From IMG/VR virus record IMGVR_UViG_2695420651_000024: a stretch of 42,748 nucleotides of DNA. One strand, 5' to 3'. A program made the translations under genes and the position numbers. The first letter of the stretch is position 1. Every line of letters starts with the position of its first letter. The notes below the pieces were generated by a model, which was not told where the DNA came from, did not search any database, and saw only the letters and a program-made list of their open reading frames with translations. Of the stretch, positions 36,681 through 39,177 are shown piece by piece. This stretch comes from a virus (Duplodnaviria > Heunggongvirae > Uroviricota > Caudoviricetes).

Positions 36681-36976
36681 TCGTTTACGTTGCCGGGCCG
36701 ATGAGCGGTTACGAGCAATTTAACCGCCCGGCCTTTCATTCCGCAGCAAAGAGGCTAACGGACAAGGGATATGTTGTGCTTAACCCCGCAACTTTACCCG
36801 ATGGTTTGACACAGGCTCAGTACATGGACATCTGCCTCGCAATGCTTCGCTGTGCCGATACGATTTATATGCTCAAAGAGTGGGAGTACTCTGCCGGCGC
36901 ACGTGCAGAAAACGCGTTGGCAGAGAAACTGGTATTGAATGTGCTTTTTGAAGAGTGGGATTCAGATGGCCTATGA
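36677..36976 (+). CDS. DUF4406-like protein (nucleoside deoxyribosyltransferase-like fold)
   Basis: 99 aa; MIVYVAGPMSGYEQFNRPAFH... N-terminus typical of this family, from memory. Confidence 0.5.
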   Translation: MIVYVAGPMSGYEQFNRPAFHSAAKRLTDKGYVVLNPATLPDGLTQAQYMDICLAMLRCADTIYMLKEWEYSAGARAENALAEKLVLNVLFEEWDSDGL

Positions 36977-37259
36977 ACGTGAAAGCCTTATCGAAAAGCA
37001 CCTCGTCGCTGAAGTGAAAAAAGCTGGCGGAGTGGCCTTTAAGTTTATATCTCCCGGTCGCCGCTCGGTACCAGATCGCATTGTTCTGCTACCCGGTGGT
37101 CGTATCGTTTTCGTTGAATGTAAAGCACCCGGCAAGCCACCACGCGCCGGCCAACTGCGTGAACACGGACGACTGCGCGCGCTGGGCTTTACCGTAGTGG
37201 TGCTGGATAGCAAAAATCTGGAGGGGATATTGTGCGGGGAGCCTATTACAACGAAATAG
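36966..37259 (+). CDS. VRR-NUC domain nuclease
   Basis: Start at internal ATG (MAYERESLIEKHLVAEVKKAGG...); ...RIVFVECKAPGKPPRAGQ matches the VRR-NUC D...E.K core. Confidence 0.65.
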   Translation: MAYERESLIEKHLVAEVKKAGGVAFKFISPGRRSVPDRIVLLPGGRIVFVECKAPGKPPRAGQLREHGRLRALGFTVVVLDSKNLEGILCGEPITTK

Positions 37260-38245
37260 ACCCTAACGCAGCACAATGGCTGCGTAACCTTATTGCTGCG
37301 GGTCATATCGCCCCGGGTGAAGTTGATGAAAGGAGTATCGAAGATGTCGCACCAGACGACTTGCGCGGATTCACACAGTGCCATTTCTTCGCCGGGATCG
37401 GCGTCTGGTCTTATGCTCTGCGTCTGGCCGGATGGCCGGATAACAAACCGGTCTGGACAGGAAGTTGCCCGTGCCAGCCTTTCAGCTCGGCTGGTAAAGG
37501 CGCTGGATTTGATGACGAGCGGCACCTATGGCCAGCGCTATTCCACCTCATCAGCGAGCGACGCCCTGAGCTGGTATTTGGCGAACAGGTTGCGGGAGTC
37601 AATGCCTGGTTCGATCTTGTACAAACTGACGTGGAAGCAGTGGACTACGCCTTTGGGCTTGTCCCGTTTCCGGCTGCGGGCGTCGGTGCCCCGCATATCC
37701 GAGATAGAGCGTATTGGGTGGCCGATGCCAGCGGCGAGCGACCACAGCGGTGGCGAAAGCGCCTCAATAGCATTGAGGAAGATGTCTGGAGATCGTCGAC
37801 CGTCCGGCAACACGCTACACAGCTCCCTGCGGGATTTTGCTCACCTGGCGGGGTGGTACACCCCAACCTGCAACACAAACCCACAGCCGGAGACAAAACG
37901 CGGTCTAGAAACCTTAGCGGGGCTATCCAGATTAGCGGGATGGCCGACAGTGACGACGGTCGACAACAACAAAGTTCGTGGCGAGGGCGCAGCGGCCAAT
38001 CATACCAAACGGGGAACGACCCTCGGCGGCCCAATACGATTAACAGCTGCTGGGATGATGCTGACTGGCTCCTCTGCCGGGATGGTCGCTGGCGGCCAGT
38101 TGAATCCGGCACATTCCCGTTGGCTCATGGGATTACCTCCAGAGTGGGACGACTGCGCGCCTACGGCAACGCGATAGTCGCACCAGCTGCCGCAACATTC
38201 ATCCGCTCGTTTATGGAATGCACAGGATACGACCTCATCTGTTGA
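37232..38245 (+). CDS. DNA (cytosine-5)-methyltransferase
   Basis: GTG start with GGAGG RBS; motif I FAGIGV, motif [15 protein letters not shown]-like [12 protein letters not shown], and C-terminal YGNAIV. A second frame (37293..38177) is also fully open; see findings. Confidence 0.7.
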
Positions 38246-38247
38246 TA

Positions 38248-39177
38248 TTATGGGTTAGGTAATGCACGATTATTAAAATTATCAATAATTTGCAACGCCG
38301 CCGTTTGTCCGCCAGCCAATAGCCCTGCTTTACTCAGAAGGTATTTAGGGAATTTGGTTGGTAAATAAACCGCACGAAGCCAGTGCCTGAATACAGCTAA
38401 AGCATTATCAGGGTATGCATAGACCATTTGGGGATTACTTGCGGATTGGTTGAATTCTTCAGGGTAATAGTGCTGGCAGCGTTGTCTTGGGCCAATCGTC
38501 GCATCGTAGTTGGAAGAAGACCAGTAGCGAGCCCAGTGCTGGCCCACACTGATATCCGGTACAGTGTACTGGTTTACTGCTAATCCAGCATGGATGAGGT
38601 CTACCATTAAACCAGCAATTTCATTGAATACAATGAAGTGTCCAGCAGGAACCGAGTTTGCCCCATGCATGATTGACACACGAGAGTGGTAATGACGCCA
38701 AGGGTCATCAGGTATGTAGCCAAGCGCTGTATAGATGTAACCACGCATACCCGCACGGGATAGCTCGCGGAAAAACTGTAGCGCAGTAGGAGTTGCAGCA
38801 CTTTGAGATACAAATGCGTAGAACTCCAGAATAGCCATACAGACTACTTCTGGGTACGCATAATGGACTGACCCATCTTTGTTGATTGGGATATAAAGAG
38901 TCGGCTCATTATATTGCTCACGCTGTAAATATGAGCTGATAAACTCCATACGCCCTCGAGCGAAAACTCCGTGGCGGAAGCTCTCTTCCCACTCTCGAGA
39001 AATATCCGCGATATTACTGCGATGCACCCCGCAAATCCTAGCCAGCCCATTTTGCGTAAGGTAGGAGATCCCGTTCTGAAGAACCCCCATTTCTATTTCG
39101 TTAAAAACCCCCTCAGTACTAACACCTAAGTCCAGTACTTGTTGGGGTGCGGGTTGCTGACCACCAAATTCACTCAT
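38248..39177 (-). CDS. Hypothetical protein with N-terminal HTH-like segment, opposite strand to the early operon
   Basis: 309 aa; NGISYLTQNGLARICGVHRSNIADISREW looks like a DNA-binding helix-turn-helix; convergent with the MTase gene and divergent from the SNF2 gene. Confidence 0.45.
   Translation of the reverse strand: MSEFGGQQPAPQQVLDLGVSTEGVFNEIEMGVLQNGISYLTQNGLARICGVHRSNIADISREWEESFRHGVFARGRMEFISSYLQREQYNEPTLYIPINKDGSVHYAYPEVVCMAILEFYAFVSQSAATPTALQFFRELSRAGMRGYIYTALGYIPDDPWRHYHSRVSIMHGANSVPAGHFIVFNEIAGLMVDLIHAGLAVNQYTVPDISVGQHWARYWSSSNYDATIGPRQRCQHYYPEEFNQSASNPQMVYAYPDNALAVFRHWLRAVYLPTKFPKYLLSKAGLLAGGQTAALQIIDNFNNRALPNP

Follow-up and report, generated by a model that had tools for sequence, protein, structure and literature searches.

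A conserved reading frame nested in a prophage DNA (cytosine-5) methyltransferase gene probably encodes a second subunit of the enzyme

The DNA (cytosine-5) methyltransferase (C5-MTase) M.EcoHK31I of Escherichia coli HK31 is composed of alpha and beta polypeptides and acts on YGGCCR; systems of this kind have been known since 1995. The specificity of methyltransferases is predicted from the target recognition domain (TRD). In M.EcoHK31I, beta is encoded within the alpha gene in another reading frame; alpha contains motifs I–VIII, motif X and a predicted TRD, beta contains motif IX, both polypeptides are required, and beta can do without its N-terminal ∼42 residues (PMC2836561; PMC3404938). M.AquI of Agmenellum quadruplicatum is also composed of two subunits, the large one carrying motifs I–VIII and the small one carrying the distal variable region, motif IX and also motif X; split fragments of monomeric C5-MTases can complement each other as well (PMC3404938). 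Here, we analyzed the methyltransferase locus of the Caudoviricetes virus record IMGVR_UViG_2695420651_000024, a stretch of 42,748 nucleotides (nt) that is referred to as the window. By published description, this locus resembles M.EcoHK31I: it is a C5-MTase gene in which a candidate beta gene is nested within the alpha gene, in another frame. We conclude that the two overlapping genes probably specify a single heterodimeric C5-MTase, one gene for its alpha subunit and the other for beta.

Two overlapping open reading frames at the methyltransferase locus

In the list of open reading frames (ORFs), the annotated gene for the 'DNA cytosine methyltransferase' (frame A) occupies positions 37232..38245 of the plus strand; it starts with GTG and encodes a protein of 337 residues, alpha. 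As read from the sequence, the Shine-Dalgarno (SD) element GGAGGGG (37220..37226, plus strand) is located 5 nt upstream of the GTG. Alpha consists of a catalytic Rossmann domain (motifs I, IV, VI and VIII), an unconserved linker, a conserved hairpin and a motif X helix. Frame B, which is +1 relative to frame A, is open from 37293 to 38177 and spans 294 codons. The beta gene in this frame (37344..38177, plus strand) starts with ATG, ends with a TAG stop at 38175-38177 and encodes 277 residues. It is wholly nested in the alpha ORF, on the same strand and in the other frame; the overlap of 834 nt corresponds to 82% of alpha. The beta SD, AGGAG (37331..37335, plus strand), is located 8 nt upstream of the ATG and is formed by alpha codons Arg34-Ser35 (AGG AGT).

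The second open frame of 294 codons at 37293..38177 had been pointed out in the initial annotation, and both ORFs and all the peptides quoted there were confirmed. The frame A peptides are FAGIGV (37388-37405), another quoted peptide (37469-37498), RDRAYWVA (37700-37723) and YGNAIV (38162-38179); those of frame B are a GW module (37716-37742), GWYTPTCN (37851-37874), GWPTVTTVD (37938-37964) and a motif-IX-like segment (38097-38147). The low complexity of frame A where frame B has its GW motifs was confirmed too, as alpha residues ∼166–264 are rich in R/S/Q/G and are predicted to be disordered by AlphaFold2.

Such a long second ORF could be a chance product of a GC-rich gene, in which case its motifs would be meaningless. 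The GC content of the methyltransferase gene is indeed higher than that of the window; however, with 58% for the gene and 50% for the window, the argument from GC richness fails. Mononucleotide shuffles of the 882 nt contained 10.1 stops on average, and none of the 20,000 shuffles was open. When protein A was kept and only synonymous codons were shuffled, the B span contained 5.2 stops on average, with a probability of being open of 3.5e-4. The other four frames of the same span are full of stops, 22 in the third forward frame and 4–15 in the reverse frames. The double openness of frames A and B is not due to chance. As described below, the B translation also has more than 6,000 homologues, and substitutions in the middle of the gene are synonymous in B. 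We therefore consider coincidence exceedingly improbable; the GC-rich coincidence offered in the initial annotation is refuted by the shuffles, which put the probability of openness at 3.5e-4 or less, and by a GC content of only 58%. The GC3 profile proposed there as a check was less informative, since GC by codon position gave no clear frame signal in the single gene; the decisive evidence on frame usage came from the comparative codon-position analysis instead.

Two long antisense ORFs, 36971..37525 and 37645..38112 on the minus strand (184 and 155 residues, respectively), also overlap the gene. They were treated as by-products of constrained composition.

Conservation of the two frames and selection along the gene

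Both frames have large numbers of relatives. Frame A has more than 8,000 homologues, all named DNA cytosine methyltransferase. The B translation has more than 6,000, with 92–94% coverage, 41–52% identity, the same Met start and no Pfam domain. A profile built from 90 B homologues matched 19,926 representatives of clusters formed at 50% identity with E≤1e-3; 8,127 of them reach E≤1e-30. In PHROGs, B-type ORFs form phrog_1008 and phrog_31772 and A-type ORFs form phrog_363, all of which are labelled 'DNA methyltransferase'. One family member, P0479, bears the UniRef name 'MTE8-ECOLI homolog'. When the 3′ half of either frame was used in tblastn, phage methyltransferase genes were matched, and the matches of the two frames overlap on the same DNA. 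According to the initial annotation, the second frame would lose its standing if homologues aligned end to end with the annotated frame and nothing matched the alternative one. Homologues do span the annotated frame end to end, yet the alternative frame has matches that are equally full-length.

We compared the two frames in 85 viral or phage loci, which include 80 viral contigs and phages Haboob, AeroV_348 and N15 (gp58). In all 85, A and B align end to end and B is always +1 of A. The full-length identities are 50–58% for A and 42–52% for B; both frames are open for 250–450 codons, and the third frame contains 8–24 stops. Because these loci had been found through B, the test was repeated on 80 species-representative bacterial genomes that were picked by A-frame peptide patterns only. 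A +1 B match was present in 80 of 80 genomes and reached at least 250 residues in 73; B is open for 241–446 codons, and an ATG occurs at the equivalent site in 70. The hosts in this second sample belong to Gamma-, Beta- and Alphaproteobacteria and Desulfovibrionaceae. Taken together, the nested A/B arrangement was observed in 165 of 165 diverged loci. Its presence in every sampled relative indicates that it is ancestral to the family, of which phage N15 gp58 is a member; matches to the family were also seen in epsilon15, Kagunavirus, and Burkholderia, Pseudomonas and Xanthomonas phages. At the DNA level, megablast aligned window positions 38037-38175 (139 nt) with Burkholderia, Pseudomonas and Erwinia phages at 83–89% identity; outside this segment, the gene has diverged beyond the reach of megablast in these phages. 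The high identity of the 139-nt segment is due to dual coding, both frames being highly conserved there.

The gene is present in 36 of 5,426 complete E. coli genomes, at least 14 of which contain the same 1014-nt gene at ≥99% identity. RefSeq annotates alpha alone, with identical coordinates, in E. coli prophages. Two E. coli copies have one extra base (1015 nt), namely L003 (NZ_CP193497 EL361) and H41 (NZ_CP157162 UTAK-2); the EL361 copy is annotated as a frameshifted pseudogene, and its two frames swap partners mid-gene. Copies of this kind lend some support to the proposal that the window gene itself is a pseudogene or contains sequencing errors, compensating indels having moved the recognition region out of frame. 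However, the arrangement in the window is the family norm in the 165 diverged loci, the same gene recurs in the E. coli genomes mentioned above, and purifying selection acts on both frames. The window copy also keeps nearly all conserved family positions, 154 of 164 in alpha and about 58–61 of 65 in beta. Compensating indels or pseudogenisation, which the initial annotation had put forward, are hardly credible in view of these results, of a frame A that is open in 51 of 51 aligned loci and of the conserved SD and ATG of beta.

For the codon-level analysis, we aligned 51 loci that are less than 85% identical in DNA. The beta ATG at 37344 is kept in 47 of them. This ATG exists because alpha codon 38 (Asp) is GAT, which is used in 48 of 51 loci, compared to 38% elsewhere in these genes. 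Alpha codon 34 (Arg) is AGG or CGG in 35 of 51 loci (34% elsewhere in the gene), and codon 35 is AGT or AGC in 37 of 46 loci with Ser (45% elsewhere); this (A/C)GG AG(T/C) bias places GGAG 8 nt upstream of the beta ATG. A GGAG-type SD precedes beta in 35 of 51 loci. Six loci contain a frame B stop after the ATG. In five of them, another ATG four codons further downstream replaces it; in phage N15, the remaining one, a TTG with a strong SD is located directly ahead of the conserved part of beta. The N-terminal region of B is open in 45 of 51 loci, whereas about 45% is expected from synonymous shuffles. The SD and ATG of beta are created by biased synonymous codon choice in alpha.

Synonymous-site conservation in A was calculated as the fraction of identical codons among pairs with the same residue, and synonymous and nonsynonymous substitutions were counted in the close relatives L010 and L012. 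The first segment (37232..37483, plus strand) covers alpha residues 1–84 with motifs I and IV, overlaps beta residues 1–47 and is constrained in A only. Wobble is ordinary here, with an identity of 0.42–0.58 at the third codon position of A (A3) versus 0.74–0.94 at the first and second (A1/A2); in the N-terminal part, the close relatives show 13 synonymous substitutions and 1 nonsynonymous substitution in A. The next segment (37484..37726, plus strand) is constrained in both frames. It places alpha residues 85–165 (motifs VI–VIII) over beta residues 48–128, which contribute a helix and a beta-hairpin, GS(T/I)LYKLTWK..RLRAS, followed by the first GWPTP module. Throughout alpha codons 109–165, all three codon positions are conserved (identity 0.64–0.93).

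In the middle segment (37727..38023, plus strand), the constraint is on B only. Beta contains its GW(P/Y)T(P/V) modules here, and the alpha sequence is a linker of low complexity that is not conserved but stays open. The close relatives show 32 synonymous and 9 nonsynonymous substitutions in B versus 2 and 39, respectively, in A; alpha codons ∼166–264 are unalignable in A (amino acid identity 0.12–0.23), and the variable position is B's third base. The initial annotation had suggested the other frame as the one that really encodes the target-recognition region, and these counts, together with the thousands of full-length B homologues, bear this out. Frame A is open through the middle in 51 of 51 loci, whereas 2.1 stops would be expected from synonymous shuffles of B (median probability of an open frame, 0.09 per locus).

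The second segment with constraint on both frames (38024..38167, plus strand) comprises alpha codons 265–312 and, in beta, RLTA.G.MLTGS and the motif-IX-like segment. In adjacent 12-codon windows, amino acid identity is up to 0.95 in beta and 0.90 in alpha. A-driven selection reappears at alpha residues 277–288, upstream of motif X. The end of the gene (38162..38245, plus strand) contains motif X (YGNAIV) and the C-terminal helix and is constrained in A only once the beta stop is passed; A3 identity goes down to 0.47, and substitutions between the close relatives are again synonymous in A.

Synonymous-site identity in A follows the same course. It is 0.46 upstream of the B ATG and 0.49 over B residues 1–47, rises to 0.70, 0.74 and 0.77 over B residues 48–71, 72–128 and 229–276, respectively, and is 0.49 after the B stop. 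Raised synonymous-site conservation over beta is the classic signature of a second coding layer, the signal of which starts ∼80 codons upstream of the boundary between motif VIII and the recognition domain. Selection changes frame along the gene, in the order A, both, B, both and A.

A single polypeptide made through two programmed frameshifts, +1 into B after motif VIII (∼37720) and −1 back to A before motif X (∼38150), would offer another explanation; in a milder version, only one of the two shifts is used and a fusion product is made beside alpha and beta. Read along the gene, the selected frames (A, B, A) would give the canonical motif order, and natural in-frame A-to-B fusions at or near the boundary where motif VIII meets the TRD do exist, for example P0390, P0400, P0391 and P0388. 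However, no conserved slippery heptamer or homopolymer was found at alpha codons ∼160–170 or ∼300–315 in the 51 loci, and the sole conserved site of the XXXYYYZ type, GGGTTTG at alpha codons 92–94, is distant from both junctions and missing from the window. The selection pattern does not fit either: B is selected from beta residue ∼48, ∼80 codons upstream of the +1 site, A is selected from alpha residue ∼277, upstream of the −1 site, and the conserved SD and ATG of beta are located ∼125 codons upstream of the junction. Frameshifting would not require frame A to be open in the middle, yet it is open in all 51 loci. A large review on recoding lists no DNA methyltransferase case (PMC5009743).

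The natural fusions also argue against frameshifting, as they have scattered junctions and look like single-indel derivatives. We searched for single-frame relatives with the chimera A(1-164)-B(125-270)-A(309-337). About 45 of the 120 best chimera matches are natural in-frame fusions of the alpha N-terminus to B, with the junction after motif VIII, later in the linker or before motif VIII. At the DNA level, three fusions are single-indel derivatives; the displaced C-terminus of A is open in two of them and degraded in one. None of the 482 retrieved proteins has motifs IV, VIII, IX and X in one frame. Since both frames are open, any indel gives an intact-looking hybrid, which explains both the fusions in the databases and the 'frameshifted' copies in E. 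coli. All these results indicated that programmed frameshifting is probably not the explanation, and production of a single chain through two shifts is improbable. The protein P0398, considered as a canonical single-frame relative, has two shifts and lacks motif VIII; it was rejected.

The GGGTTTG site occurs in 38 of the 51 diverged loci, in the −1 slippery phase for frame B. The equivalent window sequence (37505-37511) is GGATTTG. Conservation of this site probably comes from the conserved residues of both frames, G-F in A and G-L in B.

Candidate roles of alpha and beta

Pfam family PF00145 matches alpha with 45.6 bits (cut-off 22), and only residues 76–171 are aligned, with profile positions 66–167 of 324. 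A sequence profile aligns alpha with residues 71–170 of M.HhaI, covering its motifs IV–VIII. Alpha contains FAGIGV (motif I), PCQPFS (motif IV), GEQV in place of ENV (motif VI), RDRAYW (motif VIII) and YGNAIV (motif X), and the catalytic motif positions are invariant or nearly so in 70 homologues. In the AlphaFold2 model, the predicted local distance difference test (pLDDT) score is 80–96 for the Rossmann domain (residues 1–172) and about 91 for the C-terminal helix (residues 317–331); residues 174–278 are predicted to be disordered, with a pLDDT of about 30 (about 30–35 over residues ∼166–264), and are followed by a weak hairpin. A Foldseek search with this model returned the large domains of M.HaeIII, M.HhaI and DNMT2 on top (probability 1.00, E about 5e-6). 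The predicted fold of alpha is that of a C5-MTase large domain. Pfam, PDB profile search and Foldseek revealed neither a conserved TRD nor a motif IX in the part of alpha from motif VIII to motif X; a conserved hairpin, W.DADWL.CRDGKWRPV, is kept upstream of motif X. The best PADLOC match of alpha (residues 8–268) is the Druantia-associated cytosine methylase model DruM2|DruM (PDLC00026, E 6.9e-18).

The N-terminal part of alpha (residues 1–83; 37232..37480) seems to contain motif II/III-like elements (residues 4–40), including G.V...SI.DV, before motif I (FFAGIGV, residues 52–58). There are only 22 residues from motif I to PCQ, compared to about 60 in M.HhaI. The N-terminus may be a permuted Rossmann fold, with which the order of strands and helices in the AlphaFold2 model is consistent.

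From the N- to the C-terminus, the family consensus of beta consists of an unconstrained tail, RASLSARQAKALGL.TSGTYG, a helix and the hairpin GSTLYKLTWK.W.TP.G.SR.RLRAS, the GWPTPT modules and a C-terminal segment. The (L)AGWPTPT..D modules number two to five among relatives and three in the window beta. AlphaFold2 orders beta residues 70–115 with a pLDDT of 74–87. The C-terminus carries an LxPxxxxRxxMGxPxxW pattern. NCBIfam and PADLOC gave nothing for beta, and the only phmmer match of its C-terminus, to ParB at E about 0.8, was treated as chance.

The alpha catalytic motifs are under strong purifying selection, which indicates that the enzyme is in use. The strongest argument on the role of beta is one of elimination: alpha lacks both a conserved TRD and motif IX, and the conserved part of beta fills exactly that interval. 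Beta could nevertheless be a genuine overprinted protein that has nothing to do with methylation and acts, for example, as a regulator or an anti-defence protein, alpha being self-sufficient, or non-specific with a cryptic recognition element. Beta has matched no known domain or fold, its similarity to motif IX is statistically weak, and the conserved hairpin of alpha could contact DNA. However, alpha has no conserved sequence from motif VIII to that hairpin, and characterised C5-MTases all need a TRD and motif IX (PMC3404938). The conserved part of beta occupies exactly the interval between motifs VIII and X, its only alignment with M.HhaI falls on motif IX, and A and B co-occur in 100% of cases; in M.EcoHK31I, such a nested beta is needed for methylation. 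Taken together, a function of beta outside methylation is unlikely.

For the nested heterodimeric C5-MTase that we favour, the following scheme can be proposed. Both genes would be located on one mRNA, and alpha would be translated from its GTG. Alpha would provide the S-adenosylmethionine-binding, catalytic large domain (motifs I, IV, VI and VIII) and the motif X helix, with a linker, the sequence of which would be dictated by frame B, in place of the TRD and motif IX of monomeric enzymes. Beta would be initiated independently, at the ATG with its own SD inside alpha codons 34–38. It would consist of a dispensable N-terminal tail, the helix and hairpin, three GWPTPT-type modules and a 'TL'-like and motif-IX-like end, and would supply the small (DNA-recognition) domain in trans. 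Beta would be the determinant of sequence specificity, and the enzyme presumably methylates phage or prophage DNA as protection from restriction.

Several observations weigh against this assignment. We infer the translation of beta and its association with alpha from sequence. Over the first ∼47 residues of beta, no separate constraint is seen, and in some members the true start could therefore be further downstream. The compared loci are phylogenetically related, and combined P values overstate their independence. The natural A-to-B fusions indicate that a fused product could also be viable. Frame B and the 90 B homologues have no match in Pfam, which did not detect the motif IX pattern; the beta profile found nothing at E≤1 among PDB sequences, and the A-B-A chimera scores no better against PF00145 than A alone. 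The sole hhalign match between the beta profile and M.HhaI aligns beta 252–270 with HhaI 273–291 (motif IX) and is weak (E 0.33); the M.HhaI C-terminal sequence used here was checked against PDB. AlphaFold2 gave a poor model for isolated beta (mean pLDDT 58), and Foldseek found nothing below E 0.5 with it, a search that is uninformative owing to the low confidence of the model.

Whether the heterodimer assignment can be extended to the whole family is evenly balanced. In that case, the phage and prophage 'DNA cytosine methyltransferases' of a very large family would be obligate heterodimers, with a whole recognition subunit of 250–450 residues in the +1 frame; the family comprises about 20,000 clusters (50% identity) of frame-B calls and over 8,000 clusters for frame A. 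If true, few same-strand nested gene pairs of prokaryotic viruses would be longer or more widespread, the GWPTPT modules of beta, which vary in number, would determine specificity in a modular way, and M.EcoHK31I, long regarded as an isolated oddity, would belong to this family or be an analogue of it, beta holding its real TRD. Our literature search found no paper describing a nested gene in this phage family. Relative to annotation and the searchable literature, the scale of the family, a recognition domain that is apparently wholly in a hidden frame and the hand-over of constraint between frames are new.

Current annotation misses beta, as RefSeq calls only alpha, the choice of gene callers between A and B is arbitrary and PHROGs splits the frames into separate families. 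With TRD-like sequence in an unannotated frame, methylome-to-gene assignments and REBASE-style predictions would be misled. The locus is also a clean natural model of a long same-strand overlap in which constraint is handed between frames, with two segments of ∼50–80 codons that are truly dual-coded. Naturally split C5-MTases serve as scaffolds for targeted methylation (PMC2836561), and a large and diverse family of split C5-MTases would widen this toolbox.

In the E. coli genomes, the gene is located in a prophage replication module, together with genes for a DNA polymerase, an ANR regulator, DUF4406 and VRR-NUC proteins, a convergent gene, and genes for a DEAD/DEAH helicase and an integrase. 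The upstream VRR-NUC/PDDEXK ORF (36939..37259), which Pfam did not recognise at E≤0.001, overlaps the GTG start of alpha by 28 nt and contains the alpha SD; this overlap and SD location suggest translational coupling along a replication-module operon. The downstream convergent gene (38248..39177, minus strand) encodes full-length BstA, a prophage-encoded abortive-infection defence protein. Its product matches PADLOC PDLC02356 over residues 10–303 (E 2.5e-110) and has no match in Pfam; newer RefSeq records list this product as 'BstA C-terminal domain-containing protein'. The E. coli variant L002, which is 96% identical, has another small gene in the BstA slot.

Comparison with known systems

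Like viral overprinted genes, the locus appears to yield two proteins from one stretch of DNA, and synonymous variation is suppressed where both frames are constrained (reviewed in PMC8227390). Different from those genes, the products are apparently not unrelated proteins but two subunits of the same enzyme, one frame at a time is constrained over most of the overlap, and the 834-nt overlap is conserved in phages of several proteobacterial classes.

Compared to the monomeric enzymes M.HhaI and M.HaeIII, the alpha core aligns with M.HhaI 71–170, and the predicted model superposes on the large domains of HhaI, HaeIII and DNMT2. Their TRD and motif IX are located within one chain between motifs VIII and X, whereas the corresponding segment of alpha is passenger sequence. 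M.AquI is, like the proposed enzyme, a naturally split C5-MTase. However, its motif X is in the small subunit and its break is within the variable region, whereas motif X of the window enzyme is in alpha, with beta stopping inside YGNAIV, and beta is nested across 82% of alpha.

The resemblance to M.EcoHK31I extends to the motif content of alpha, which carries motifs I–VIII as well as X, and to the N-terminus of beta, which is dispensable there (∼42 residues) and unconstrained here (∼47 residues). If the names of the M.EcoHK31I plasmids M38 and C23 are read as subunit sizes in kDa, its alpha would be similar in size to the window alpha, which is estimated at about 37 kDa. Three differences were noted. 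The predicted TRD of M.EcoHK31I is in alpha, whereas the TRD-like GWPTPT modules are in beta here; the window beta is longer (277 residues) and begins within the N-terminal domain of alpha; and M.EcoHK31I belongs to a restriction-modification system, whereas the window gene stands as an orphan within a prophage replication module. Compared by description, the window gene appears to fit the M.EcoHK31I architecture in each feature tested, save the stated location of the TRD.

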